Assembly (NCBI GenBank): GCA_017860085.1 | Contig: JAFNAJ010000003.1 | Coordinates: 1-38,404 of the forward strand | Length of the DNA stretch: 38,404 nucleotides | Origin: Acidobacteriota bacterium | Lineage (GTDB): Bacteria > Acidobacteriota > Vicinamibacteria > Vicinamibacterales > JAFNAJ01 | Direction: 5' to 3' | Part shown: positions 2,853 to 34,810 of the stretch, one piece after another | How positions within the stretch are numbered: position 1 is the stretch's first letter | How the letters are laid out: the number at the start of each line of letters is the position of its first letter | Made by a program: the position numbers and the translations under genes | The notes under the pieces: generated by a model | Databases searched by the model: none | What the model was told of the DNA's origin: nothing | The model's input: only the letters and a program-made list of their open reading frames with translations

Positions 2853-3998
2853 ATGGGTTCCCCAACGAGCGTCACGCCGCTCGCCGGTGTCTACGTCCAT
2901 GTGCCGTTCTGCAGCGCGATCTGCAACTACTGCAACTTCAACCGCGGCCTGCTCGATGCCGACCTGAAGCGGCGCTACGTCGCGGCGCTCGTGCGCCAGA
3001 TCGAGGAAGCGAGCGACGGCACGGGCGTCGACACGATCTACTTCGGTGGCGGCACGCCGTCGCTGCTGGCGGCCGAGGAGATCGAGGCCGTGATCGGCGC
3101 GTGCCGACGGGCGTTTGCGGTGGCTGGCGACGCGGAGGTCACGCTCGAGACCAACCCCGAGACGGTGGAGCCCGCGAGCCTCGATGGGTGGCGCGCGGCG
3201 GGCATCAACCGGCTCAGCCTCGGGGTGCAGTCGTTTCGCGACGACGAGCTGCGGCGCCTCGGCCGGATCCACGATGGGGCCCGAGCCCGGCGTGCGATCG
3301 ACGGCGCACGCGCGGCAGGTTTCGACAACCTGAGCCTCGATCTGATGATGTGGCTGCCAGGCCAGCAGGTCGCGGAGTGGTTCGAGTCGGTGGACGGCCT
3401 GGTGGCGGCTTCTCCTGACCACGCGTCGCTCTACATGCTCGAGCTCTATCCCGGCGCGCCGCTCCGCGACGAGATGGCGAGGAGCGGGTGGTCGCTCGCG
3501 CCCGACGAGGACGCGGCGGAGATGTACGTGGGCGGGTTCGAGCGGCTCGATCGGGCTGGCTTCGAGCAGTACGAGATCTCGAACGTGGCGCGGCCCGGGC
3601 ACCAGTCGCGCCACAACCTCAAGTACTGGACCGACGGCGAGTGGTTGGCCTTCGGGTGCGGGGCCCACGGCACCCGTGCCGGCACGCGCTGGCGCAACCT
3701 CCCGGCCACCGACGAGTACGTGGCGCGCGTCGAAGCGGGCGTGCCCGTCGTGGCCGAATCACGACGGCTGTCGCCGCACGACCGCTTCGTCGAAGCCATG
3801 ATCACAGGGCTTCGCCTGAGCCGCGGCATCGACCTCGACGAGGTGGCCGTGCGCTACGGCGTGGACGTGATGGCGACCTACGGTGACGAGCTGACCCCGG
3901 CCATGGAGGCTGGCCTGCTGGCGCTCGACGGTCGGGGCCTCCGCCTCAGCCGTCAGGGGATGCTCGTCGCCAACGAGATCTTTAGGGTTTTCGTTTAG
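2853..3998 (+). CDS. hemW: Radical-SAM HemW/HemN-like protein (heme chaperone / coproporphyrinogen III oxidase-like)
   Basis: YVHVPFCSAICNYCNF (CxxxCxxC), IYFGGGTPS, GINRLSLGVQSF. The 381-aa length is typical of HemW. Confidence 0.85.
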   Translation: MGSPTSVTPLAGVYVHVPFCSAICNYCNFNRGLLDADLKRRYVAALVRQIEEASDGTGVDTIYFGGGTPSLLAAEEIEAVIGACRRAFAVAGDAEVTLETNPETVEPASLDGWRAAGINRLSLGVQSFRDDELRRLGRIHDGARARRAIDGARAAGFDNLSLDLMMWLPGQQVAEWFESVDGLVAASPDHASLYMLELYPGAPLRDEMARSGWSLAPDEDAAEMYVGGFERLDRAGFEQYEISNVARPGHQSRHNLKYWTDGEWLAFGCGAHGTRAGTRWRNLPATDEYVARVEAGVPVVAESRRLSPHDRFVEAMITGLRLSRGIDLDEVAVRYGVDVMATYGDELTPAMEAGLLALDGRGLRLSRQGMLVANEIFRVFV

Positions 3999-7306: not shown

Positions 7307-8170
7307 ATGAGCATTCGCATCGGCATCATCGGTGGCAGCGGCCTCTACGACATGGCAGATCTGACCGATCGCGAGGACGTCCAGGTGTCGACGCCCTTCG
7401 GTGACCCGTCGGGGCCCTACGTCACGGGCACCCTTCGGGGGCAGCGCGTGGCGTTTCTCGCACGCCATGGGGTGGGCCATCGACTGATGCCGTCCGAGCT
7501 GAACTTCCGCGCGAACATCCACGGCTTGAAGCAGCTCGGCGTCGAGTGGATTCTGTCGGCGAGCGCCGTCGGGAGCCTCAAGGAGGACTACGCGCCGCTC
7601 GACCTGCTCCTGCCCGACCAGTTCTTCGATCGGACGAAGGGGCGTGTCAGCACGTTCTTCGGCCACGGACTCGTGGCGCACGTGTCGTTCGCGCACCCGG
7701 TCTGCCCGATGCTGCATGGCCTTGCCTACGAGGCGGCCCGCGCGTCAGGCGCGCGCGTGCATCGCGGCGGCACCTACGTGTGCATGGAGGGGCCGCAGTT
7801 CTCGACCAAGGCCGAGTCGATGCTCTACCGCTCGTGGGGCATGGACGTCATCGGCATGACCAACCTGCAGGAGGCCAAGCTCGCGAGAGAGGCCGAGATG
7901 TGCTACGTCACGATCGCGCTCGTGACCGACTACGACTGCTGGCACCCGGATCACGATCACGTCACGGTGGAGATGGTGATTGCCAACCTGACGCAGAACG
8001 CGCGCATGGCGCAGAAGGTGATTGCGAGCGCGGTGGAGCGGCTGCCGGTGAATCGGACGTGCGAGTGCGGCCATGCGCTGGCCACGGCCGTCATCACCCG
8101 GCCCGATGCGGTCCCGGCGCAGGCGCGCCGCGACCTCGACCTGCTCGTGGGCAGGTACCTCAAGGCCTGA
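7307..8170 (+). CDS. mtnP: S-methyl-5'-thioadenosine phosphorylase (MTAP)
   Basis: [34 protein letters not shown], with an MTAP-like length of 287 aa. Confidence 0.88.
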
Positions 8171-8213: not shown

Positions 8214-9155
8214 ATGCGCATCATCGTCACCGGTTCGATCGCGTACGACTACCTGATGTCGTTTCCGGGCTCGTTCCAGGAGCACTTCCTGCCGGATCAC
8301 CTCCAGCGGATCAGCCTCAGCTTCCTCGTCGACACGATGGAGAAGCGCCGGGGCGGCTGCGCGCCCAACATCGCCTACACCCTGGCGCTGCTCGGCGAAC
8401 GGCCCGCGATCATGGGCGCAGCCGGCCAGGACTTCGGCGAGTACCGGTCGTGGCTCGAGCGCTACGGCATCGACACATCGCTCGTGCGGCAGATTCCCGA
8501 CAAGTTCACGGCGTCGTTCTTCTGCAACACCGACCAGCAGAACAACCAGATCGCGTCCTTCTACACGGGCGCCATGGCGCACGCGGGCGAGCTGTCGTTT
8601 CGGGACGCAGGCCCGTGCGACCTCGCGATCATCTCGCCCAACGACCCGGGCGCGATGCTGCGGCATGCCGAGGAGTGTCGCGAGCTCGGCATCCGGTACA
8701 TCTACGACCCCGGTCAACAGTGCGCGCGAGCCGGTGGCGACGAACTGAAGGCGGGGATCATCGGCGCCGCCATTCTCATCTGCAACGACTACGAGTTCGA
8801 GCTGATTCGGCAGAAGACCGGACTTGGCGAGGGGCAGGTGCTCGAGCACTGCGAGGCGCTGGTCGTGACGCGAGGCGAGAAGGGGTCGGTCATCTACCAC
8901 GACAGCCGGCGCCTCGAGGTTCCTGCCGTGCCGGCCGTCAGGGAAACCGACCCGACCGGCGTCGGCGACGCGTTTCGCGCAGGATTCATGAAGGGGTTGG
9001 CGATTGGGGCGAACCACGAGGTGTGCGGGCGACTCGGCAGCGTGGCCGCCACGTACGCCCTCGAGCACCTGGGCGGCCAGAGTCACATGTTCACCTGGCA
9101 GGAGTTCCAGGAGCGGTATGCGCGCCACTTCGGGGCCGGGGCGTTTGCAGGCTGA
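8214..9155 (+). CDS. PfkB-family carbohydrate/nucleoside kinase (adenosine-kinase-like)
   Basis: RGGCAPNIAYTLALLG near the N-terminus, C-terminal DPTGVGDAFRAGF (PfkB signature 2), 313 aa. Confidence 0.8.
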   Translation: MRIIVTGSIAYDYLMSFPGSFQEHFLPDHLQRISLSFLVDTMEKRRGGCAPNIAYTLALLGERPAIMGAAGQDFGEYRSWLERYGIDTSLVRQIPDKFTASFFCNTDQQNNQIASFYTGAMAHAGELSFRDAGPCDLAIISPNDPGAMLRHAEECRELGIRYIYDPGQQCARAGGDELKAGIIGAAILICNDYEFELIRQKTGLGEGQVLEHCEALVVTRGEKGSVIYHDSRRLEVPAVPAVRETDPTGVGDAFRAGFMKGLAIGANHEVCGRLGSVAATYALEHLGGQSHMFTWQEFQERYARHFGAGAFAG

Positions 9156-21801: not shown

Positions 21802-23043
21802 GTGAGCGCTCCTCAGCCGTTCGATCGCCTCTGCCACCGGTATCCTTCGCTGCTGTTCGACGTCGTCACGGTCCTCGAGCCTGGTCGACGGGTCGAGGCG
21901 GTGAAGAACGTCACCGTCAACGAGGACTTCTTCCAGGGGCATTTCCCTGGGGCGCCGTTGATGCCAGGCGTGTTGATCATCGAGGCGCTCGTGCAGGTGG
22001 CCTCGCTGCTCACGTTGCGTCAGGCCGACGGACGTCGTGAGCGCGTGTGGCTGCGGGGCGTGGATCACGCGAAGTTCCGCCGCCAGGTCGTGCCAGGCGA
22101 CTGCGTGCACCTCGAGGTCGCCCTGGCACGACGGCGGGCGGCGTTGGTTCAGTTGAAGGGCGTGGCTCGGGTTGGCGAGCACGTCGTGGCCGAGGCCGAT
22201 CTGCTGCTCGCGATCGCCCCCCCGGGCACCGAGGTCCACGCATCGGCTATCGTGCACGAGGGTGCCCGTATTGGTGAGGGGACGTACGTCGGGCCTGGCG
22301 CGACCATCGGTCCGCACGTCGTGGTGGGGCGACGCTGCCACGTGGGCGCCTCGGCGGTCGTCGATGGCTGGACCGAGATCGGCGACGACACCGAGATCTA
22401 CCCGTTCGCGTCCCTCGGTCTGCCCCCCCAGGACCTGAAGTACCAGGGAGCGCCGACGCGACTGGTGGTCGGTCGGCACAACATCTTCCGGGAGTTCGTC
22501 ACCGTGCACCGCGGCACGGAGCACGGGGGCGGCATCACCACGATTGGCGACCACAACCTGTTCATGGCGTACGCGCACGTGGCGCACGACTGTCACGTGG
22601 GCAGCCACACGATCTTCGGCAACGGCGCGACGCTGGGAGGGCACGTCACCGTCGAAGACTACTCGACGATCTCGGCCTTCTCGGGCGTGCACCAGTTCTG
22701 CCGCGTGGGACGCCACGCCTTCATCGGCGGCTACTCGGTCGTCACCAAGGATGCGATGCCGTTTGCGAAGTCGGTCGGCAACCGTGCGCGCATCTTCGGC
22801 CTCAACTCCATCGGGCTCGTACGTCGAGGGTTCTCGCCCGACACGGTCCGCAAGCTTCGGCAGGCCTACCGGTATCTGCTCGTGTCGAAGCTCAACACGA
22901 CCCAGGCGCTCGCGCAGATCGAGCAGGATCCCGACCTGCAGTGCGATGAGGTGCGATACCTCGTCGAGTTCATCAGGACGTCGCGCCGGGGCGTCACGCT
23001 GCGTCGCGGAAGCCGTCGGGCGGACGATGGCCCCGACAGCTAG
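21802..23043 (+). CDS. Bifunctional fusion: 3-hydroxyacyl-ACP dehydratase FabZ (about 21802-22215) and UDP-N-acetylglucosamine O-acyltransferase LpxA (about 22231-23043)
   Basis: N-terminal half HRYPSLLFDVV..VKNVTVNEDFFQGHFPGAPLMPGVLIIEALVQ (FabZ hot-dog His/Glu motifs). C-terminal half VHASAIVHEGARIGEGTYVGPGATIGPHVVVG... hexapeptide repeats, then FGLNSIGLVRRGFS (LpxA). Single 413-aa ORF, linker APPGT, no stop codon. Confidence 0.85.
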   Translation: MSAPQPFDRLCHRYPSLLFDVVTVLEPGRRVEAVKNVTVNEDFFQGHFPGAPLMPGVLIIEALVQVASLLTLRQADGRRERVWLRGVDHAKFRRQVVPGDCVHLEVALARRRAALVQLKGVARVGEHVVAEADLLLAIAPPGTEVHASAIVHEGARIGEGTYVGPGATIGPHVVVGRRCHVGASAVVDGWTEIGDDTEIYPFASLGLPPQDLKYQGAPTRLVVGRHNIFREFVTVHRGTEHGGGITTIGDHNLFMAYAHVAHDCHVGSHTIFGNGATLGGHVTVEDYSTISAFSGVHQFCRVGRHAFIGGYSVVTKDAMPFAKSVGNRARIFGLNSIGLVRRGFSPDTVRKLRQAYRYLLVSKLNTTQALAQIEQDPDLQCDEVRYLVEFIRTSRRGVTLRRGSRRADDGPDS

Positions 23044-23901: not shown

Positions 23902-24873
23902 GTGATCCACGACACTTCACGTGCGCGTGTGGCGGCCATCGGCGTCGGCTACCTCGGCCGACACCACGCCCGCATCCTTTCGCAGCTCGACGGCGTTGAG
24001 CTGGTGGCCGTCGTCGACATCAACCACAAGCGTGCCGAAGAGGTGGCAGCGGCGGCGGGAACCGTCGCGCTGTCCGATGTCGGCGAACTGCTGGGGATGA
24101 GCCTCGACGCCGTGACGGTGGCCGTGCCCACCGAGGCACACCACGCGGTGGCGAGACCCTTTCTGGAGAAGGGCGTGTCGGTGCTCGTCGAGAAGCCCAT
24201 GGCGCGAACGCTCGAGGAGGCCGACGAGCTCATCGTCGCATCGGAGACTTCCGGCGCGACCCTCGCCGTGGGTCACACCGAGCGCTTCAACCCCGCCGTC
24301 ACGGCAGCCCTGTCCCTGGTCTCGAACCCGGGTTTCGTCGAAGTCCACCGCCTGGGCACATTCCCCGAGCGAAGCCTCGACATCGACGTGGTGTTCGACC
24401 TGATGATCCACGATCTCGACGTGCTGCTGGCGGCCGTGCCGGGCGACGTCGTCGGGCTCGAGGCCGTCGGGGTCCCGGTGTTGACGGGCCGCGTCGACAT
24501 CGCCAACGCGCGCGTGCGGTTCTCGTCGGGCTGCATCGCCAATGTGACCGCGAGCCGGATCAGCAGGGATCGCGTGAGGAAGGTGCGGTTCTTCCAGCAG
24601 GATGCCTACATCTCGATCGACTACGCGAGCCAGGAGGTCGAGCATTGGCGGCTGGCCCGCGGCAGCGCCGAGCGCCCTGACATCGTCGGCGGCCGGGTCG
24701 AGGTGATGCGAGACGAGCCGCTCAGGATCGAGATCGCCGACTTCGTGAACGCCGTGCGGACCGGGCAGCGTCCCCGCGTCACGGGGGGCGACGGCCGCAA
24801 GGCGCTGGCCCTTGCTCGACAGGTGAGCGACGCCATCGCGCAGGGTCAGCAGACGCCGAGGGGTGGAAGATGA
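23902..24873 (+). CDS. Gfo/Idh/MocA-family NAD(P)-dependent oxidoreductase
   Basis: Rossmann N-terminus VAAIGVGYLGRHHARIL. EKP motif VLVEKPMA. GHTERFNP. 323 aa. The stop overlaps the next gene (ATGA). Confidence 0.8.
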   Translation: MIHDTSRARVAAIGVGYLGRHHARILSQLDGVELVAVVDINHKRAEEVAAAAGTVALSDVGELLGMSLDAVTVAVPTEAHHAVARPFLEKGVSVLVEKPMARTLEEADELIVASETSGATLAVGHTERFNPAVTAALSLVSNPGFVEVHRLGTFPERSLDIDVVFDLMIHDLDVLLAAVPGDVVGLEAVGVPVLTGRVDIANARVRFSSGCIANVTASRISRDRVRKVRFFQQDAYISIDYASQEVEHWRLARGSAERPDIVGGRVEVMRDEPLRIEIADFVNAVRTGQRPRVTGGDGRKALALARQVSDAIAQGQQTPRGGR

Positions 24874-25712
24874 TGGCCGACGAGGCCGAGCGCCTGTGGG
24901 AGACGCACGACATCCTCGCATTGGGCACACGGGCCGACGAGGCCCGGCGCCAGCGACATGGCGATCGCGTCACGTTCGTGCGCGTCGCCACCCTGGCGCT
25001 CGACACGGCCCGCGAGGCACGGTGGTCGTCCGCGGCCCGCGAGATCCGGATCGCCGGTCGGCCGCACGATGTGACCGCGGCCGAGCAGGCAATCGACTCG
25101 GTCGTCCGCCGCGCCGAAGGCAGGCCGGTGACGGCCTTCTCGCTCGCCGAGCTGCAGGCCCTCGCACCAGACCGTGCGGGCTTCGTTGACGTGCTCAGGA
25201 GGCTGTTCGGCGCTGGCCTCACCAGTGTGGCGTCGGCAGACGTGGACGGCCTCGAAGACTTGCGGCAGCCTGTCGAGGCGGTCCTGGCGGCCGACGGACA
25301 CATCGCGCGCTTCACGGTCGCCCGGGCGACGCACGAAAGCCCCGTGCCGTTGTTCCTGGCGGTCCGCGCCCTCCAGAAGACCACGGGTGCCGTGCGAGCG
25401 TTTGCGCCCCTGCCTCGGTCGGTCGACGGGTCGAGACCCACGACCGGCTACGAAGACGTCAAGTCGGTGGCCATCGCACGACTGCTGCTCGACAACGTCG
25501 GGTCGATCCAGGTGGACTGGGCGTTGCACGGTCCGAAGCTCGCGCAGGTCGCGCTGCTCTTCGGTGCCGACGACCTCGACGCGGTGCCAGTCGAGGACGA
25601 GTCGGCCGACGGGCGTCGGCGCGCACCGCTCGAAGAGGTGAAGCGGAACATCCGGGCGGCCTCACTGACCGCGGTCGAGCGAGATGGTCGTTTCGGAGTA
25701 CTGGAGTCATGA
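24870..25712 (+). CDS. Cysteine-free paralogue of MqnE/MqnC-type radical-SAM enzymes (no CxxxCxxC); function unknown
   Basis: 280 aa, colinear similarity to the product of 26521-27759 (for example ARLLLDNVGSIQVDWALHGPKLAQVALLFGADDLDAV vs ARIVLDNFDNLQASWVTQGGKVGQLSLAFGANDMGSV). Contains no Cys residue. ATGA overlaps on both sides. Confidence 0.7.
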   Translation: MMADEAERLWETHDILALGTRADEARRQRHGDRVTFVRVATLALDTAREARWSSAAREIRIAGRPHDVTAAEQAIDSVVRRAEGRPVTAFSLAELQALAPDRAGFVDVLRRLFGAGLTSVASADVDGLEDLRQPVEAVLAADGHIARFTVARATHESPVPLFLAVRALQKTTGAVRAFAPLPRSVDGSRPTTGYEDVKSVAIARLLLDNVGSIQVDWALHGPKLAQVALLFGADDLDAVPVEDESADGRRRAPLEEVKRNIRAASLTAVERDGRFGVLES

Positions 25713-26500
25713 CCGCCGTCAGGGTGGGGGCCGTCGAGTACCTGAACGCCAGGCCCCTCGTGCACGGACTGGGAGCGGCCGGCCTGTTCTCGGTGCGGTT
25801 CGACGTGCCGTCGCGGTGTGCCGATCTGCTCGCCGCGCACGCCATCGATGTCGGGCTCATCCCGGTCGCCGAGTACCGGGCCGACGACTACGTCATCGTC
25901 CCCGACGTCTGCATCGGGTCGAGCGGCCCGGTCGCCTCGGTGGCCGTCTTTTCACAGAAGCCCATCGAATCCGTGCGATCGATTGCGCTCGACACCAGCT
26001 CGCGCACGTCGGCCGCGCTCGTGCGTGTGCTGTGCGCCGAGCGGTGGGGAATCGCGCCCCTGCCGACGATGCTCCAAGGGGCGGATGCCGCGCTGCTCAT
26101 CGGCGATCCGGCCCTCGAAACCGATCCCGGCCAGTACGGCGTCCTGAAGATCGACCTCGGCGCCGAGTGGAGAGCCCTCACGGGGCTGCCCTTCGTCTGG
26201 GCGTTGTGGGCAGGTCGCGAGTCCGTGATGTCGGCCGATGTCTGTCGAGCGTTGCAGGCGGCGCGCGACCGGGGACGAGAGGCGATCGCGATGATTGCCG
26301 AGGACTACGCGTGCGGCGATTCGAGCAGAGCCCGGCGAGCCGTCGAGTATCTCAGGACGAACATCGGATACGACCTCGATGCCGCACACATTGCGGGGCT
26401 CGAACGTTTCCTCTCGTCGGCCGCCGCGGCCGGCGCGATCCCACGCGCAGGCGGACTCCGGTTGGCCCGACCGGCGGCGACCGCGCCCGTCGGGGGCTGA
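25709..26500 (+). CDS. mqnA: Chorismate dehydratase MqnA (futalosine pathway)
   Basis: VGAVEYLNARPLVHGL, VPSRCADLLAAHAIDVGLIPVAEY, LPFVWALWAG. 263 aa, typical of MqnA (PF02621-like). Confidence 0.85.
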   Translation: MTAVRVGAVEYLNARPLVHGLGAAGLFSVRFDVPSRCADLLAAHAIDVGLIPVAEYRADDYVIVPDVCIGSSGPVASVAVFSQKPIESVRSIALDTSSRTSAALVRVLCAERWGIAPLPTMLQGADAALLIGDPALETDPGQYGVLKIDLGAEWRALTGLPFVWALWAGRESVMSADVCRALQAARDRGREAIAMIAEDYACGDSSRARRAVEYLRTNIGYDLDAAHIAGLERFLSSAAAAGAIPRAGGLRLARPAATAPVGG

Positions 26501-26520: not shown

Positions 26521-27759
26521 ATGAGCATCGACACCATCGCCGCAGGGGTGCGGAGCGGCGAACGCATCGGGTTCGACGACGCGCGAGAGCTGTATCGGGA
26601 GGCGCCGCTGGCGTTGCTGGGTGCGTTGGCCCATGGTATTCGCCTGGGGCGGCACCCGGAAGGCGTAGTCACCTACATCATCGACCGCAACGTCAACTAC
26701 ACGAACATCTGCGTCGCGCGCTGCAACTTCTGCGCGTTCTACCGCCCGGTGGGCTCGCCCGACGGCTACGTGCTGTCGTTTGACGAACTGTTCAGGAAGA
26801 TCGACGAAACCCTGGCGGTCGGCGGACAACAACTGCTGCTGCAAGGCGGGCACAACCCTGACCTGCCGCTCGAGTGGTACCTGGACCTGTTCCGTGCTGT
26901 GAAGGCCCGGTACCCGGAGCTTCGCCTGCACGCCCTGTCGCCCCCCGAAGTCGTTCACCTCTCGCGGCTGTCGCGACTGCCCGTGCGCGAGGTCATCGAT
27001 CGCCTGGTGGCCGCCGGTCTCGACAGCATTCCGGGAGGCGGCGCGGAGATTCTCGTCGACCGAGTGAGGAAGCTGCTCAACTGCTATACCAAGGCCACCG
27101 CGGACGAGTGGCTGGGGGTGATGCGCGAGGCGCACCGGGCGGGGCTCCGGACGACGGCCACGATGATGTACGGCAGCGTGGAGACGCCGGACGAACGCCT
27201 CGAGCACATGTTCCGCCTGCGGGAGCTTCAGGACGAAACGCGGGGCTTCACGGCCTTCATCGCGTGGAGCTATCAGCCCGAGCACACCGAGCTGCAGGGG
27301 GTCGAGGCCACCGCGGTCGAGTACTTGCGCACACTGGCCACCGCACGCATCGTGCTCGACAACTTTGACAACCTGCAGGCGTCGTGGGTCACCCAGGGGG
27401 GCAAGGTGGGGCAGCTCAGCCTGGCCTTTGGCGCCAACGACATGGGCAGCGTGATGATCGAGGAGAACGTCGTCCGTGCGGCCGGTGCGAGCTATTGCAT
27501 GGACGAGGTGGAGATCGTCCGCAACATCGAGGACGCCGGTTTCGTGCCGAAGCGCCGGACGATGCACTACGAGATCGTTGGCGATCCCGTGTTTCGCGCC
27601 CGCGAGGTGCCGCGCCGTTTCGGACTCGACGTGGCCAAGCACGAAGGCGAGGCGTCCATCCCAAGCGAGCTGGCGTCGTACCGGGGCAGGAGCCGAGCGG
27701 CTCGTGACGCGCGGCGCAGCGAGCCGCCGGGCGGGGCCCCGACGTCGGCCCCAGAGTAG
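26521..27759 (+). CDS. Radical-SAM menaquinone biosynthesis enzyme, MqnE/MqnC family (aminofutalosine synthase or cyclic dehypoxanthinyl-futalosine synthase); about 50-aa low-complexity C-terminal tail
   Basis: NVNYTNICVARCNFCAFYR (CxxxCxxC at nt 26710-26733), LLLQGG, MMYGSVET, ARIVLDNFDNLQASW. The true start is ATG 26521 inside the longer track ORF 25684-27759. Confidence 0.85.
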   Translation: MSIDTIAAGVRSGERIGFDDARELYREAPLALLGALAHGIRLGRHPEGVVTYIIDRNVNYTNICVARCNFCAFYRPVGSPDGYVLSFDELFRKIDETLAVGGQQLLLQGGHNPDLPLEWYLDLFRAVKARYPELRLHALSPPEVVHLSRLSRLPVREVIDRLVAAGLDSIPGGGAEILVDRVRKLLNCYTKATADEWLGVMREAHRAGLRTTATMMYGSVETPDERLEHMFRLRELQDETRGFTAFIAWSYQPEHTELQGVEATAVEYLRTLATARIVLDNFDNLQASWVTQGGKVGQLSLAFGANDMGSVMIEENVVRAAGASYCMDEVEIVRNIEDAGFVPKRRTMHYEIVGDPVFRAREVPRRFGLDVAKHEGEASIPSELASYRGRSRAARDARRSEPPGGAPTSAPE

Positions 27760-27762
27760 CCG

Positions 27763-29058
27763 GTGCAGGTCCTGATGCCCGGCGAGATTCTCGTCGTGCG
27801 TGCCGCGCACGTCCTGCCGGTGGGCACGCCGCCCGTCCGGGACGGTGCCGTCGCGATTGAAGACCACCGGATCGTCGCCGTGGGGCCGGCCGCGATGGTG
27901 CAGGCGACGGTGAGCGAGCGCGTGTCCGCAGGACGCGTGGGTGGCTCGCCCACCTTGCGGGACCTGGGGTCCGTCGCGCTGCTGCCCGGGCTGGTGAATT
28001 CGCACACGCACCTCGAGCTGTCGTGGCTCAGCGGGCGAGTGCCGCCGGCATCGACGCTGCCCGCGTGGGTGCGAACGCTGCTGGCCGCGCGAAGGGCGGC
28101 AGGTGGCGATGATGCTGCAGCCGTGGGGCCCGCGTTACGAAGCGCTCGCGAGGCTGGAACGGTGGCCGTGGGTGACATCGGCAACGGGACGTCGGCCTAC
28201 GCCAGCTTGACGGAGGCCGTGTTCGACGCGGTGGCGTTCTACGAGATCATCGGGTTCGCGCCCGAGAACCCGGACCGGCTCGTGGATGCGGCCGTCGCCG
28301 AGATCGAGGCGCTGCCCTCGAGCCCGACGGTGCGGCCCGCGTTGGCCGCGCACGCGCCATACTCGGTGCATCCCGACACCCTGCGCCGCCTGGGGCGCGA
28401 GCGCCAGGAGCGCGGACGACGCCCGATGAGCGTGCACCTCGGCGAGTCGGGCGAGGAGGGCGAGTTCCTCGCCTCCGGAACCGGGGCGTGGCGTGCTCTG
28501 CTTGGCGAGCTCGGCACATGGAACCCCTCCTGGAAGGCTCCGGCCACGACCCCGGCGGCTTATCTCGAAGCCCTCGGGTTCCTCGGTCCCGGGGTGCTGG
28601 CCGTCCACGGGGTGCACCTCGGCGATGGGGACCTGGAACGGTTGGCGCGTCTCGACGTGACCCTGGTGACCTGTCCTCGGAGCAACCTGTGGACCGGGGT
28701 GGGCGCGCCGCCCATCGATCGGTTCTATGCGTCCGGAGTCAAGGTGGCAGTCGGCACCGACAGCCTGGCGAGCAACACCGACCTCAGCGTCTTCGCCGAG
28801 TTGGAAACGCTGCGTCGCCTGAGCCGAGACGTGCCGGCATCGCGTCTCATCGAGAGTGCGACGCTGAGGGGCGCCGAGGCCCTGGGCCTCGGGGCAGAGT
28901 TGGGCAGCATCGCCCCGGGCAGGCGTGCTGCGCTGGTGGCGGTCGATGTCCCGCCGTCGACAGTGGACGTCGAGGAGTATCTGGTGGGCGGGATTCCCCC
29001 GGATCGAATCCGATGGGTGACCTCGCCCGAGAGCTGGCGACTGGACAGGCCGTGCTGA
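27763..29058 (+). CDS. Amidohydrolase-superfamily deaminase (candidate aminodeoxyfutalosine deaminase); alternative start ATG 27775
   Basis: LLPGLVNSHTHLELS (HxH metal motif), AVHGVHL, VAVGTDSLASN. Located between mqnE/C and mqnP. Confidence 0.72.
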   Translation: MQVLMPGEILVVRAAHVLPVGTPPVRDGAVAIEDHRIVAVGPAAMVQATVSERVSAGRVGGSPTLRDLGSVALLPGLVNSHTHLELSWLSGRVPPASTLPAWVRTLLAARRAAGGDDAAAVGPALRSAREAGTVAVGDIGNGTSAYASLTEAVFDAVAFYEIIGFAPENPDRLVDAAVAEIEALPSSPTVRPALAAHAPYSVHPDTLRRLGRERQERGRRPMSVHLGESGEEGEFLASGTGAWRALLGELGTWNPSWKAPATTPAAYLEALGFLGPGVLAVHGVHLGDGDLERLARLDVTLVTCPRSNLWTGVGAPPIDRFYASGVKVAVGTDSLASNTDLSVFAELETLRRLSRDVPASRLIESATLRGAEALGLGAELGSIAPGRRAALVAVDVPPSTVDVEEYLVGGIPPDRIRWVTSPESWRLDRPC

Positions 29059-29906
29059 CCAAGCTGCGCATCTACGCATCGTTCGTGCGGGTGAACCACT
29101 CGGTGTTCGCCTTGCCGTTCGCGCTGGTCGGCGCGCTGCTCGCCGCCCGCGTGACCCCGCTGACCCTGTCGAGGGTCGGGTGGATCGTCGGGGCGATGGT
29201 CACGGCGAGGAGCGCAGCGATGGGGTTCAACCGCCTCGTTGACCGGCGGTTCGACGCCCTGAATCCGAGGACGGCGATGCGGGAGCTGCCGCGGGGGGTC
29301 ATGTCGCCCCTCGAGGCGTCGGTTTTCGTCGGGGCGGCCTCCTGCGCGTTCGTGTTCTGCGCCTGGAACCTCGGACCGCTCTGCTTCGCGTTGTCGCCCG
29401 TCGCTCTCGCCATCGTGTTCTGGTATTCGCTCGCCAAGCGCGTCACGTGGATGACCCAGTTCTTCCTGGGGCTGGCCATGGCGGTGGCGCCGGTCGGCGG
29501 GTGGCTCGCGGCCGGTGGGGGCATCTCGTGGGAGCCGGTTCTCCTGGCCGTTGCGATCGGGTCGTGGGTGGGAGGCTTCGACGTGCTGTACGCCTGCCAG
29601 GACGTGGAGTTCGATCGCGCGCATGGCCTTCGATCGATCCCCGTGCGGTTTGGCATCCGCGGGGCGCTCGGCATCTCACGCCTGCTGCATGTCGTCACCA
29701 TCTTCACCCTGGCGATGCTCGGCGTGACGGCTGGCCTCGGAGCGGTGTACTTCGGAGGCGTGGTCCTCGTGGCGGCCCTGCTGGCCTACGAGCAGTCGCT
29801 CGTGAGCCCGCACGACCTGTCCCAGGTCAAGCGCGCGTTTGACCTCAACGGCTACGTTGGCATCCTCTACCTCGTGATCACAGGGATTGCGCTCTATGTC
29901 GAATGA
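29013..29906 (+). CDS. mqnP: UbiA-family aromatic prenyltransferase (MqnP-like); alternative start GTG 29052
   Basis: FVRVNHSVFALPFALVGALLA, GFNRLVDRRFDALNPRT (NxxxDxxxD), second Asp-rich region YACQDVEFDRAHG. Multiple TM helices. Confidence 0.8.
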   Translation: MGDLARELATGQAVLTKLRIYASFVRVNHSVFALPFALVGALLAARVTPLTLSRVGWIVGAMVTARSAAMGFNRLVDRRFDALNPRTAMRELPRGVMSPLEASVFVGAASCAFVFCAWNLGPLCFALSPVALAIVFWYSLAKRVTWMTQFFLGLAMAVAPVGGWLAAGGGISWEPVLLAVAIGSWVGGFDVLYACQDVEFDRAHGLRSIPVRFGIRGALGISRLLHVVTIFTLAMLGVTAGLGAVYFGGVVLVAALLAYEQSLVSPHDLSQVKRAFDLNGYVGILYLVITGIALYVE

Positions 29907-30519
29907 GCCTGCCGTCGGTCGCCGCAACGTGGCCCTCGCGGTCACGGGTGCCAGTGGCGCCATCTACGCCGTGCGGACCCTCGCCGCCCTGCTCGAGCAG
30001 GGGTGCGAGGTCGACGTGGTCTTGTCGGAGTTCGGCCGCCGGCTGTTGCGTGACGAAATGGGGGAGGCGGCGGCGGTCGACCGGCTGCCGGCGTTTCTCG
30101 AGGAGCGCTACGGCGCGGGCGTGCGGAAGGGGAGCCTCGTCTTGCACAGCAACCGCGACCTCGGTGCCAAGCTCGCCAGCGGCAGCCAGCGGTGCGAAGG
30201 CATGGCGATCGTGCCCTGTTCGATGAAGACGCTGGCGGGTGTCGCCCATGGGCTCTCGCGGACGTTGGTGGAGAGGGCCGCGGACGTGATGCTCAAGGAG
30301 CGGCGCCGGCTCGTGCTCGTGCCCCGGGAAACGCCCATGAGCCTGCCCCAGCTGCGCAACATGGTGACGTGCGCCGAGGCAGGGGCGATCGTGCTGCCGG
30401 CCATGCCGGCGTTTTACCACCAGCCTCGGACCATCGACGATCTGGCCGACTTCGTCGCCGGCAAGATCCTGTCCGTGCTCGGCTTCGAGCACCACCTGTA
30501 CCCGTCGTGGAAGGGCTGA
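29896..30519 (+). CDS. ubiX: UbiX-family flavin prenyltransferase (MqnL-like)
   Basis: VALAVTGASGAIYAVRTL, IVPCSMKTLAGVAHG, RRRLVLVPRETP. The track ORF begins at TTG 29887; ATG 29896 is preferred. Confidence 0.85.
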   Translation: MSNEPAVGRRNVALAVTGASGAIYAVRTLAALLEQGCEVDVVLSEFGRRLLRDEMGEAAAVDRLPAFLEERYGAGVRKGSLVLHSNRDLGAKLASGSQRCEGMAIVPCSMKTLAGVAHGLSRTLVERAADVMLKERRRLVLVPRETPMSLPQLRNMVTCAEAGAIVLPAMPAFYHQPRTIDDLADFVAGKILSVLGFEHHLYPSWKG

Positions 30520-31310
30520 ACCACGCGGGGCCGGACAAGCACCCGCACGCGATCGCGGGGATGTTCGACGCCATCGCGCGGCGATACGACTTCCTCAATC
30601 ACCTGCTGAGCGGCGGGCTCGACCGGCGCTGGCGCGCGCGTGCGGTGCGCGAGCTGGCGTTCCAGGGGCACGAGGTCGTGCTGGATCTCTGTACCGGGAC
30701 GGCCGACCTCGCGATTGCGGCGATCGAGGCGCGGCAGGGCGCGGCGCGGCGCGTGCTGGGCGTCGACTTTGCGGGCGAGATGCTCCGGATCGGGCAGCAG
30801 AAGCTGCGGGCGGCCTCGCACGATGGCAGGGTCCCGCTCGTGCGCGGCGATGCCGTGCGCCTGCCGGTGGCATCGGCCTCCGTGCACTGCGCGATGGTCG
30901 CGTTTGGCATCCGCAACGTGGTCGACCCGGCCGCCGCCTGTGTCGAGGTGCACCGGGTGCTACGTCCGGGTGGGCGTTTCGCCGTGCTCGAGTTCGCCAT
31001 GCCCAGGACACCGGTGCTGCGCAGCGTGTATGCCTGGTACTTCCGTCACGTGCTGCCGAGGATCGGGCGCGCCGTCTCGCGGCACGACGCGGCCTACGAC
31101 TACCTGCCGGCATCGGTTGGCACGTTCTTCCCTCCGGAGACGTTCATCGCCATCGTCGAACGTGCCGGGTTCACGCGCGTTCGTGCCATCCCCCTGACCT
31201 TCGGCATCGTCTATCTCTATGTGGCGGAGAAGCCCCGGGCCACCGGGGAAACGGCCGGAGGGATGGGCCGCGGGGGCGCTTCGAACGGGCCGGCTGCTAC
31301 AATGATGTGA
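30507..31310 (+). CDS. ubiE: Demethylmenaquinone/ubiquinone C-methyltransferase (UbiE/MenG)
   Basis: MFDAIARRYDFLNHLLSGGLDRRWR, SAM motif VLDLCTGTADLA, FGIRNV, RVLRPGGRFAVLEF. Start inferred at GTG 30507 inside track ORF 30192-31310. Confidence 0.85.
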   Translation: MEGLNHAGPDKHPHAIAGMFDAIARRYDFLNHLLSGGLDRRWRARAVRELAFQGHEVVLDLCTGTADLAIAAIEARQGAARRVLGVDFAGEMLRIGQQKLRAASHDGRVPLVRGDAVRLPVASASVHCAMVAFGIRNVVDPAAACVEVHRVLRPGGRFAVLEFAMPRTPVLRSVYAWYFRHVLPRIGRAVSRHDAAYDYLPASVGTFFPPETFIAIVERAGFTRVRAIPLTFGIVYLYVAEKPRATGETAGGMGRGGASNGPAATMM

Positions 31311-33598: not shown

Positions 33599-34810
33599 GT
33601 GACGCAGCACCTCGCGCCAGCCCGGGCCATCGTCCTCGTCCTCGACGGTGCCGGCATCGGCGAGCTGCCCGACGCGGCCGACTACGGCGACGAGGGCAGC
33701 AACACGATTGGCAACGTGGCCCGCACCGCGGGGCTGAAGGTTCCCACGCTCGCTCGCCTCGGGTTGTCGCGCCTCGTCGATCTCGGGGATGCGTCGATCG
33801 CTGAGCGGCCGACCGGCGCGTTCGGCCGCATGGCGGAGGCCTCGCCTGGCAAGGACTCGGTCACGGGGCACTGGGAGATCACCGGCCTGAGGCTCGACCA
33901 GCCCTTCCCCGTGTTCCCACAGGGGTTTCCCCCGGAGATCCTGCGCCCGTTCGAGGCGCGGATTGGACGGACGGCCCTTGCCAACAAGGTGGCGTCGGGC
34001 ACGGCCATCATCGAGGAGCTGGGCGACGCGCACGTCGAGACCGGCCAGCCGATCGTCTACACGTCGGCCGACAGCGTGTTCCAGATCGCCGTGCACGAGT
34101 CGGTGGTTCCCCTCGACGAGCTCTACCGCTGGTGCGAGGTCGCCTTCGAGATCGCGTGTCAGGCGCACGGCGTGGGGCGCGTGATTGCCCGGCCGTTCGT
34201 CGGCGAGTCTGGCGCCTACACCAGGGACTCGGCGCGTCGTCGCGATTTCTCGCTGCCGCCACGCGACGAGACCCTGCTCGACCGGCTCACGCAAGCCGGT
34301 GTGCCGGTCGTGGCCATCGGCAAGATCGAGGACCTGTTTGCCGGGCGCGGCATCAGTCGATCGACCCACACCAGGAGCGACGCAGAAGGTCTCGATGTGG
34401 TCGAGCAGGAGCTTGCCGCGACCCCGCGGGGATTGATCTTCGCCAATCTCGTCGATCTCGACACGATGTACGGCCACCGCAACGACCCGGCCGGGTACGC
34501 GGCCAACCTCGAGCGTCTCGATCAGGGAATCGCCAGGCTCCTCCCGCGGCTCACGCCGCGTGACGTCCTTTTCATCACCGCCGATCACGGCAACGACCCG
34601 ACGACGCCGAGCACCGATCACTCGCGCGAGTACGTGCCGCTTCTCGTAACGGGCGCGTTGGTGCGTCGCGTCGATCTCGGCACACGCCCGACGTTCGCCG
34701 ACCTGGGGCAGACGCTGAGCGAACTCTTCGGGGTTGGGCCTCTGGCCAACGGGACGAGCTTTCTGGGCGATATCCTGGCGTCGGAGCGGACCGGCCGGAC
34801 GGCGCATTGA
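33599..34810 (+). CDS. deoB: Phosphopentomutase
   Basis: IVLVLDGAGIGELPDA..YGDEGSNT, GKDSVTGHWE, YTSADSVFQIA, FANLVDLDTMYGHRND, ITADHGNDPT. Confidence 0.9.
   Translation: MTQHLAPARAIVLVLDGAGIGELPDAADYGDEGSNTIGNVARTAGLKVPTLARLGLSRLVDLGDASIAERPTGAFGRMAEASPGKDSVTGHWEITGLRLDQPFPVFPQGFPPEILRPFEARIGRTALANKVASGTAIIEELGDAHVETGQPIVYTSADSVFQIAVHESVVPLDELYRWCEVAFEIACQAHGVGRVIARPFVGESGAYTRDSARRRDFSLPPRDETLLDRLTQAGVPVVAIGKIEDLFAGRGISRSTHTRSDAEGLDVVEQELAATPRGLIFANLVDLDTMYGHRNDPAGYAANLERLDQGIARLLPRLTPRDVLFITADHGNDPTTPSTDHSREYVPLLVTGALVRRVDLGTRPTFADLGQTLSELFGVGPLANGTSFLGDILASERTGRTAH

Follow-up and report, generated by a model that had tools for sequence, protein, structure and literature searches.

A cysteine-free TIM-barrel protein, probably descended from the aminofutalosine synthase MqnE, is encoded directly upstream of mqnA in Vicinamibacteria

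What is a relative of the radical S-adenosylmethionine (SAM) enzymes of menaquinone synthesis doing inside a menaquinone operon when it has no cysteine at all with which to hold a [4Fe-4S] cluster? The question is raised by a 38,404-nucleotide stretch of a Vicinamibacterales genome (Acidobacteriota bacterium, assembly GCA_017860085.1, contig JAFNAJ010000003.1, positions 1 to 38,404; hereafter the window), in which an open reading frame (ORF) on the forward strand between a Gfo/Idh/MocA oxidoreductase gene and mqnA encodes a 280-residue protein that we call X (Table 1). The original prediction, made from the letters of the window, had described this product as an intact, cysteine-free paralogue of the radical SAM enzyme encoded two genes downstream, locked into the operon by overlapping start and stop codons and retained either as a non-catalytic partner or as a barrel recruited to new chemistry. 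The elementary features of that description hold: the ORF begins at the first ATG following an in-frame stop, is uninterrupted, contains no cysteine and 33 arginines, overlaps its neighbour by an ATGA at either end and has a genome-typical GC content at third codon positions (0.84, compared to 0.84-0.91 in the neighbouring genes).

X is homologous to the radical SAM menaquinone enzymes. HMMER searches with the three models that the original prediction had named gave significant matches to TIGR03699 (MqnC; 2.5e-24, 85.7 bits) and TIGR03700 (MqnE; 1.5e-23, 83.3 bits), neither of which reached its cutoff (428.1 and 434.55, respectively), whereas PF04055 (Radical_SAM) did not match X at E ≤ 1. No NCBIfam model attained its cutoff on X, and the pseudo-SAM model TIGR04419 (PsgB) was not among the NCBIfam matches at E ≤ 1; on the other hand, the Pfam model CofH_C (PF19288) matched residues 190-275 above its gathering cutoff (36.2 versus 27 bits). 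Apart from fold and descent, X lies outside the radical SAM, MqnE and MqnC families on every membership test. The proposed end-to-end colinearity with the downstream enzyme was upheld by profile alignment (X 88-290 with MqnC 125-353 as well as the N-terminal helix, almost the full length being colinear) but not by BLASTP, which returned a single significant segment covering the C-terminal ~90 residues (32% identity, E = 2e-11). The motif pairs quoted in support are real, with IRIAGR standing opposite LLLQGG and a short variable loop standing opposite the CxxxCxxC of the partner. This motif is found in none of 235 full-length family members and in none of 83 copies in the loci that we fetched, and about half of the sequences are without any cysteine. 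Because it is absent throughout, the missing motif is a family trait and an assembly error is excluded as its source; taken with the significant homology, this bears out the claim that X is a relative of these enzymes unable to ligate the cluster.

The predicted fold agrees with this relationship. An AlphaFold2 model computed from a 58-sequence alignment (predicted local distance difference test, pLDDT, 94; predicted template modelling score, pTM, 0.92) consists of eight β/α units and a C-terminal hairpin, that is, a (βα)8 barrel. Foldseek against the PDB returned MqnE of Pedobacter heparinus as best match (6XIG/6XI9; E = 7e-18, template modelling (TM) score 0.80 on the query), with HydE, PylB, BioB, ThiH and HydG as further matches (E from 7e-18 to 1e-6 with MqnE included), and by sequence MqnE is the only solved relative of X. 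In the model, X has a TIM-barrel core fold homologous to that of solved radical SAM enzymes.

To describe what X has lost and kept, we compared it with 66 MqnEs at the 93 columns conserved in these to 90% or more. X retains 29 of the columns, among them R26 and H30 in the N-terminal helix, E58, P65, A-G-L, Q169, P-L (180-181), A201/R204/D208/N209, W217, A-Q (225-226), L229, G232, D234/D235/D237 and E-R (270-271). R26 and H30 are common to both proteins, and the 'HGxxTTFVRV' of X resembles the 'HGDAAYFVRN' of MqnE. Lost or replaced are the T-N-x-C-x3-C-x-F-C-x-F block, the H-x-V-x-G after strand β2, P-G-G-G-A-E, K207, T-M-L-Y-G-H-x-E, H245, R250, H301, K303 and the G-T after the DD.D motif. The MqnE columns T79, N80, C82, C86, F88, C89 and F91 are all gaps in X, and the loop in their place (residues 40-57) varies within the X family; in strand β2, E58 and P65 are retained, Arg stands in for His and the second Gly is missing. 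HxVxG, PGGGAE and TMLYGHxE are what we take, from general knowledge rather than from the 6XI9 coordinates, to be SAM-binding motifs of MqnE. Because the CxxxCxxC loop and these motifs are gone, the sequence of X excludes canonical binding of SAM and of the cluster and, by the same token, radical chemistry. The best-conserved part is the C-terminal region, which carries the motifs PTTGYEDVK, IQVDW, GPKLAQVALLFGADDLDAV, GRRRAPLEE and VERDGRF, and much of it is shared with the MqnEs that are encoded in the operons of related genomes (GPKLAQVAL.FGADD.D versus GPRLAQVGLSFGADDIDG; VERDGRF versus IERDTVF). Residues that are invariant in X specifically (T35, R38, V39, D126, R147, T192-G193, D196, Q214, D216, G221, K223, R250-R251, P253, E256, R259 and R274) are found in the AlphaFold2 model mostly in loops and at the ends of strands, on the barrel's catalytic face.

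From which enzyme, then, is X derived? The radical SAM neighbour is, as judged from its sequence, MqnC and not MqnE: it passes the MqnC cutoff (Table 1), remains under that of the MqnE model (TIGR03700, 347.8 bits), matches PF04055 with 76.2 bits and has its cysteine motif at 26701-26733. A profile of X scored 118-126 bits on MqnEs encoded in operons (loci L169, L159, L155, L152, L167, L148 and L104), 80-97 bits on the MqnEs of Vicinamibacterales and 61-85 bits on MqnCs, with group means of 90.5 bits for MqnE and 72.4 for MqnC; single targets were the operonic MqnE of L169 (126.6 bits), a Vicinamibacterales MqnE (94.5) and MqnC of the window (60.8). BLASTP of X against the L169 MqnE gave one end-to-end alignment (X 9-278, 29% identity, E = 1e-24) with a 27-residue gap at the CxxxCxxC loop. 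In neighbour-joining (NJ) bootstraps MqnC was always monophyletic without X, and 64% of replicates placed X within the MqnE clade; the mean distance of X was 1.71 to operonic MqnEs, 1.93 to Vicinamibacterales MqnEs and 2.17 to their MqnCs. The specific grouping of X with operonic MqnEs appeared in only 17.5% of replicates, and the branch of X is long. Loci L169, L159, L155, L152, L167, L148 and L178 read mqnE-mqnA-mqnC, L169 continuing with deaminase-mqnP-menG, so that a true radical SAM MqnE with CxxxCxxC occupies the slot in which X sits elsewhere; the closest database relatives of these operonic enzymes are named 'MqnE [Vicinamibacteria bacterium]' and carry the motif in 120 of 120 among the matches listed. 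Descent of X from MqnE, with the operonic Vicinamibacteria MqnEs as its closest radical SAM relatives, is well supported by these sequence comparisons. A duplication of the adjacent MqnC is rejected on profile bits, BLASTP and NJ distance, since MqnE is the closer relative. It had also been anticipated that motif-bearing orthologues in relatives would speak against the loss; positional counterparts with the motif do exist in a related lineage, but these are true MqnEs outside the X family.

A scan of metagenome contigs for a GC-rich DNA pattern encoding HG...TNxCxxxCxFC uncovered MqnE-type genes on contigs with Vicinamibacteria-like tetranucleotide usage (r > 0.97), and a protein search with one of them (the L110 MqnE) retrieved entries that NCBI names 'aminofutalosine synthase MqnE [Vicinamibacterales bacterium]', with CxxxCxxC in 120 of 120 among the matches listed. 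One of these (P0299), identical to the L110 MqnE, lies on contig DCWN01000017.1 of the metagenome-assembled genome (MAG) UBA2161 (GCA_002328835.1), which carries X on DCWN01000026.1 (L051). This mqnE is preceded, at a distance of ~6 kb, by a gene for a 275-residue PF02621 protein; among solved proteins its best relatives are AF1704 (1ZBM, 274 bits) and the MqnD-type TTHA1568 (222 bits), unlike the PF02621 protein of the window, which matches the chorismate dehydratase SCO4506. Coexistence of X, MqnE and MqnD in the same genome was seen in this one MAG, plus one metagenome sample with both loci. X is not a stand-in for MqnE or MqnD because UBA2161 encodes a genuine MqnE and an MqnD-type protein alongside X, and for these two steps the earlier suggestion that X covers a reaction missing from the cluster is not supported. 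In the NJ tree, the stand-alone Vicinamibacterales MqnE groups with other MqnEs (L102, L129), apart from X. It is likely that a second MqnE became available and that the operonic copy then shed its radical machinery yet was retained. In the portion of Table S1 of PMC13386864 covered here, which includes none of the seven Vicinamibacteria assemblies looked for, the rows for GCA_003220225.1, GCA_003223215.1, GCA_003223245.1, GCA_003224085.1 and GCA_001766815.1 give MqnC=2, MqnD=1 and MqnE=1; such rows, whose taxonomy is unproven, would fit X having been counted as a second MqnC in Vicinamibacteria genomes and are suggestive in this respect. As a separate observation, in marine Vicinamibacteria-type genomes (L222-L231; for instance L224, 3053-3880 and 10001-11107) mqnD and the stand-alone mqnE are ~6 kb apart, with a TonB-dependent receptor gene and an ABC iron-siderophore/cobalamin-type uptake operon between them and NifU/IscA-type Fe-S assembly genes and nadA flanking.

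X belongs to a large family. A search of 5.8 billion proteins returned proteins of 280-310 residues with the same architecture, and a search of 1.84 billion cluster representatives returned 249 clusters at E ≤ 1e-30. All named members are from Vicinamibacteria or Acidobacteriota, and so are the MAGs with the 80 best genome loci, in which we surveyed distribution and synteny; two of the loci have evidently wrong bin labels. (The records of L013, L035 and P0356, contigs whose gene order and sequence are typical of Vicinamibacteria, carry the labels Bifidobacteriaceae, Alphaproteobacteria or Acidimicrobiales; wrong binning or labelling of these MAG contigs is the probable cause.) The order X-mqnA-mqnC-deaminase-mqnP-(ubiX)-menG is maintained wherever the contig suffices, and X is directly upstream of mqnA in 80 of the 80 loci; the most divergent members are also from Vicinamibacterales and have the same gene order, which answers the call for a survey of synteny with mqnA. 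UbiX is absent from the cluster in ~15 loci. In 34 loci (e.g. L021 6469-7941 and L047 6426-7892) the Gfo/Idh/MocA gene and X are separated by a UbiD-type menaquinone decarboxylase gene (TIGR03701, 602 bits), which the window does not have at that position; because of this neighbour directly upstream, X is embedded in the mqn cluster. Insertions in the cluster hold UbiD, a Yip1-like membrane protein, an amidohydrolase, DinB, a glycosyltransferase and similar genes; MqnB, MqnD and MqnE were sought among them and not found. Neither are these three encoded anywhere in the window or within 8-10 kb of X in any locus.

X is under selection at the protein level. Across loci its identity is 44-57%, compared to 46-59% for MqnA, 43-52% for the deaminase and 74-81% for MqnC. 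The ratio of nonsynonymous to synonymous substitution rates (dN/dS), computed on close pairs with dS < 1, is 0.06-0.27, the same range as for MqnA and the deaminase, and 40 columns are invariant in 58 X sequences at ~50% identity. On the basis of this low dN/dS, the invariant columns and the conserved synteny, we conclude that X is, by its sequence record, a selected protein and not a decaying relic. The decay that the original prediction had considered is not borne out, no disrupted copy having appeared beyond frameshift errors of long-read MAGs: in loci L003, L014, L020, L029, L030, L036 and others, every gene is split across frames in tblastn, which suggests indel errors rather than pseudogenes. 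Candidate natural X-MqnA or UbiD-X fusions (the long proteins P0222, P0234, P0266 and P0268) were rejected as frameshift artefacts, and no MqnE-MqnA fusion was found in 20 operons. With its cofactor residues lost, its fold conserved and its sequence under purifying selection, X fits the definition of a pseudoenzyme, as far as comparative data can tell.

The coupling of X to mqnA is older than X. In 46 of 74 loci the X stop and the mqnA start can be read as an NTGA overlap, and 11 further loci have an overlap of another kind, which brings the total to 57 of 74. A tight or overlapping mqnE-mqnA junction is present in other lineages with true mqnE as well (e.g. GTGA in L159). The X-mqnA overlap is inherited from the ancestral mqnE-mqnA junction and is not a new feature of X. 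The ATGA coupling emphasised in the original prediction is therefore real, but as a hint of a new partnership between X and MqnA it is weak, because the overlap is ancestral to mqnE-mqnA operons.

What might X do? In the scenario that we propose, the gene for X arose in place from the aminofutalosine synthase gene (mqnE) that the operon originally contained. The lineage with X (Vicinamibacterales and relatives) has a second MqnE, of a different MqnE branch, whose gene lies at another site, a few kb from mqnD. The operonic copy lost the CxxxCxxC loop and the SAM-binding motifs and stayed as a stable (βα)8 barrel under purifying selection, translated from the mRNA position of its ancestor, in overlap with mqnA. 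It may keep a non-catalytic job that the ancestral MqnE already held, or one that evolved easily from MqnE, by binding a metabolite of the pathway, a partner protein or both on the face that once held the active site; it could in this way serve the early futalosine pathway as an accessory or regulatory subunit, with MqnA, the first enzyme, as likeliest partner, much as HisZ serves HisG. We put forward this reading, in which X binds a ligand or a partner without catalysis and most plausibly assists or regulates MqnA, as a tentative one. It is slightly favoured by the finding that no core step seems to need X, because a related lineage runs the same operon without it, and slightly also by the protein-level selection on X; residual rate correlations (X-MqnA 0.33, X-MqnC 0.02) lend weak support to the link with MqnA. 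Several observations weigh against it. MqnA of S. coelicolor is an active homodimer by itself (PMC9672406), and MqnA of the window appears, by eye and without alignment, to retain the Asn, Ser and Tyr that were mutated in that work. The overlap with mqnA, present in mqnE-mqnA operons before X arose, is alone no sign of an X-MqnA complex. Basic residues that are invariant in MqnE and plausibly contact its substrates are changed in X (H123R, H245L, R250A, H301S, K303Q), and because several are replaced X may no longer bind the ligands of MqnE. Conservation in X is concentrated on the barrel's catalytic face, a pattern that suits a new enzyme equally well, and the rate correlations are too weak to name a partner, the highest (0.42) being with the unrelated upstream gene.

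A refitted MqnE barrel might instead perform an ionic step on a futalosine-type intermediate, for instance by taking over futalosine hydrolysis from MqnB, or might catalyse a side reaction. To such a non-radical enzyme the X-specific invariant polar residues on the catalytic face (R38, E58, R60, D126, R147, R183, D216, K223, D234/D235/D237, R250/R251) would be well suited, as would selection as strong as that on MqnA and the deaminase, and the cluster has an aminofutalosine-deaminase-type gene and no MqnB, with neither MqnB nor MTAN found in the window, where only an MTAP-type phosphorylase is present. We nonetheless judge a new enzyme unlikely, for no known catalytic motif or hydrolase family was matched in Pfam, NCBIfam or Foldseek, and the related lineage with the same operon and a true MqnE has no X, so that the operon is not obviously short of a step that X must supply. 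The same portion of Table S1 of PMC13386864 offers a lead only: rows with MqnC=2 and MqnB=0 share an accession block with a gp6 Acidobacteria MAG, their taxonomy being unproven, but MqnB=0 with MtnN=0 is common also in the rows of that portion that have MqnC=1. A wider formulation, in which X is an unrecognised futalosine-pathway component of Vicinamibacterales, be it an ionic enzyme (for instance a non-homologous futalosine hydrolase) or an obligatory subunit that makes MqnA responsive to an intermediate, seems to us possible though doubtful.

That X forms a heteromer with a live relative (the neighbouring MqnC or the stand-alone MqnE), which it would stabilise, activate or protect, possibly against oxygen in these mostly aerobic bacteria, would follow an established pattern of dead paralogues activating live ones, of which the trypanosomatid S-adenosylmethionine decarboxylase prozyme is an example. 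X and MqnE have the full barrel fold in common, and MqnC is always co-encoded two genes from X. Yet MqnE or MqnC oligomers with an interface usable by X are not in evidence, the rate correlation with MqnC is nil, MqnC is far better conserved than X across the same genomes and the stand-alone MqnE is encoded at a distant locus, which leaves a prozyme role distinctly improbable. Least of all do we expect that X lacks a function as a protein, the ORF persisting for translational coupling to mqnA or as a slowly decaying relic. The stop/start overlap with mqnA is indeed widespread and inherited, the separate MqnE made the operonic copy redundant, and X is the fastest-evolving protein of the neighbourhood (mean distance 0.81); coupling, however, would keep the frame open and not the amino-acid sequence, and the low dN/dS, the invariant columns, the confidently predicted fold and the lack of any disrupted copy in 80 loci, other than long-read frameshift errors that hit all genes there, make this explanation very hard to sustain.

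Table 1. X, its parts and the adjoining genes (coordinates of the window; residue numbers are those of X)
Feature	Position	Strand	Remarks
Gfo/Idh/MocA oxidoreductase gene, last gene of the lpx block	23902..24873	+	upstream of X
ATGA overlap, X start with stop of the upstream Gfo/Idh/MocA oxidoreductase gene	24870..24873	+	
X, cysteine-free and cluster-less, probable descendant of operonic MqnE, pseudo-radical-SAM TIM barrel	24870..25712	+	ORF, 280 aa, ATG start
N-terminal helix and strand β1 (residues 15-39)	24912..24986	+	D23, R26, H30, T35, R38, V39 invariant
Short variable loop (residues 40-57)	24987..25040	+	replaces the ~45-aa CxxxCxxC loop and helix α1 of MqnE; [4Fe-4S] site deleted
Strand β2 'EIRIAGRP' (residues 58-65)	25041..25064	+	corresponds to MqnE 'EVHIVGGLHP' (GGE-type SAM motif)
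CofH_C-type C-terminal region (residues 190-275)	25437..25694	+	PF19288 and invariant columns
ATGA overlap, X stop with mqnA start	25709..25712	+	
mqnA, chorismate dehydratase	25709..26500	+	PF02621, 181.7 bits; best solved relative SCO4506 chorismate dehydratase, 1.3e-33
mqnC, cyclic dehypoxanthinyl futalosine synthase, radical SAM with CVARCNFC	26521..27759	+	TIGR03699, 488.8 bits (cutoff 428.1)
Amidohydrolase gene, aminofutalosine-deaminase type, under family cutoff	27763..29058	+	PF01979; NF006269, 141 bits versus cutoff 320; conserved in the cluster
mqnP-type UbiA prenyltransferase gene	29013..29906	+	start codon uncertain
UbiX-family flavin prenyltransferase gene	29887..30519	+	
MenG/UbiE-type methyltransferase gene	30540..31310	+	start approximate

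The genes around X have features of their own. Upstream in the window lie genes for a fused FabZ-LpxA, for LpxI and for the Gfo/Idh/MocA oxidoreductase; the fusion is one 413-residue ORF (21802-23043) that joins a FabA/FabZ dehydratase domain to an LpxA-type hexapeptide acyltransferase, and it is likewise called in the Vicinamibacteria loci with returned gene tables. Downstream, MqnC extends past the end of its family model by a low-complexity C-terminal tail of ~59 residues rich in Arg, Ala and Pro (residues 354-412; 27580-27759). If it began at its first ATG (29013), the mqnP ORF would share its first 46 nucleotides with the amidohydrolase gene, at the end of the latter; GTG codons at 29052-29103 are possible alternative starts. 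The window also encodes an MTAP-type S-methyl-5'-thioadenosine phosphorylase, a PfkB-family kinase and a phosphopentomutase (7307-8170, 8214-9155 and 33599-34810).

How does X compare with systems already known? The original prediction knew of no described role for such a protein, and this stands: PGAP names X 'hypothetical protein', and literature searches returned no description of cluster-less MqnC or MqnE relatives or of relevant pseudo-radical-SAM proteins. MqnZ (Ravcheev & Thiele 2016), considered as a counterpart, was rejected as an unrelated PF01048 protein. With MqnE (TIGR03700) X shares full-length homology, the (βα)8 barrel, the slot upstream of mqnA and the motifs R..xH in the N-terminal helix, AF.PL, W, AQ..L..GADD.D and ERD; unlike it, X is ~90 residues shorter, has no cysteine motif, has the GGE-type motif, PGGGAE and TMLYGHxE deleted or replaced and cannot generate a 5'-deoxyadenosyl radical. 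MqnC (TIGR03699) shares superfamily, the C-terminal CofH_C domain and the operon with X, but is an intact radical SAM enzyme and further from X than MqnE is (61-85 versus 80-126 profile bits). A precedent is provided by PsgB (TIGR04419, HemN-related non-iron pseudo-SAM), curated radical SAM homologues described as being without an iron-sulfur site, although these belong to a HemN/HemW-like branch and to a context outside the futalosine pathway. HemW (TIGR00539) is a model for the role proposed for X, in that its radical-SAM-type barrel binds a ligand and passes it on and is not used for radical catalysis; it differs in subfamily and ligand, and it retains its cysteine motif and cluster. As it happens, a gene for this radical-SAM-fold heme chaperone is present in the window at 2853-3998 (TIGR00539, 281.6 bits), and the NCBIfam match list of its product includes TIGR04419. 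HisZ, finally, is a catalytically dead histidyl-tRNA synthetase paralogue that acts as regulatory subunit of HisG in an experimentally demonstrated complex. Like X as we propose it, HisZ is a selected dead paralogue of a pathway-related enzyme and partners the first enzyme of a biosynthetic pathway, but its fold and pathway are unrelated.

In JGI/IMG, many proteins of the X family bear the name 'aminodeoxyfutalosine synthase' or '2-iminoacetate synthase ThiH', and given this IMG/KO naming, pathway reconstructions may mistake a dead X for MqnE or for a second MqnC. In soil, Vicinamibacteria are widespread and abundant, and all genome loci that we examined carry X inside the menaquinone operon. 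X would represent a radical SAM enzyme turned in place into a cofactor-free protein, and because the intact MqnE state is still visible in a related lineage, the steps of this change should be reconstructable. If it is true that X is a regulator or a new enzyme, it would be an added component of a pathway that in other bacteria is under study as a target for antibiotics.

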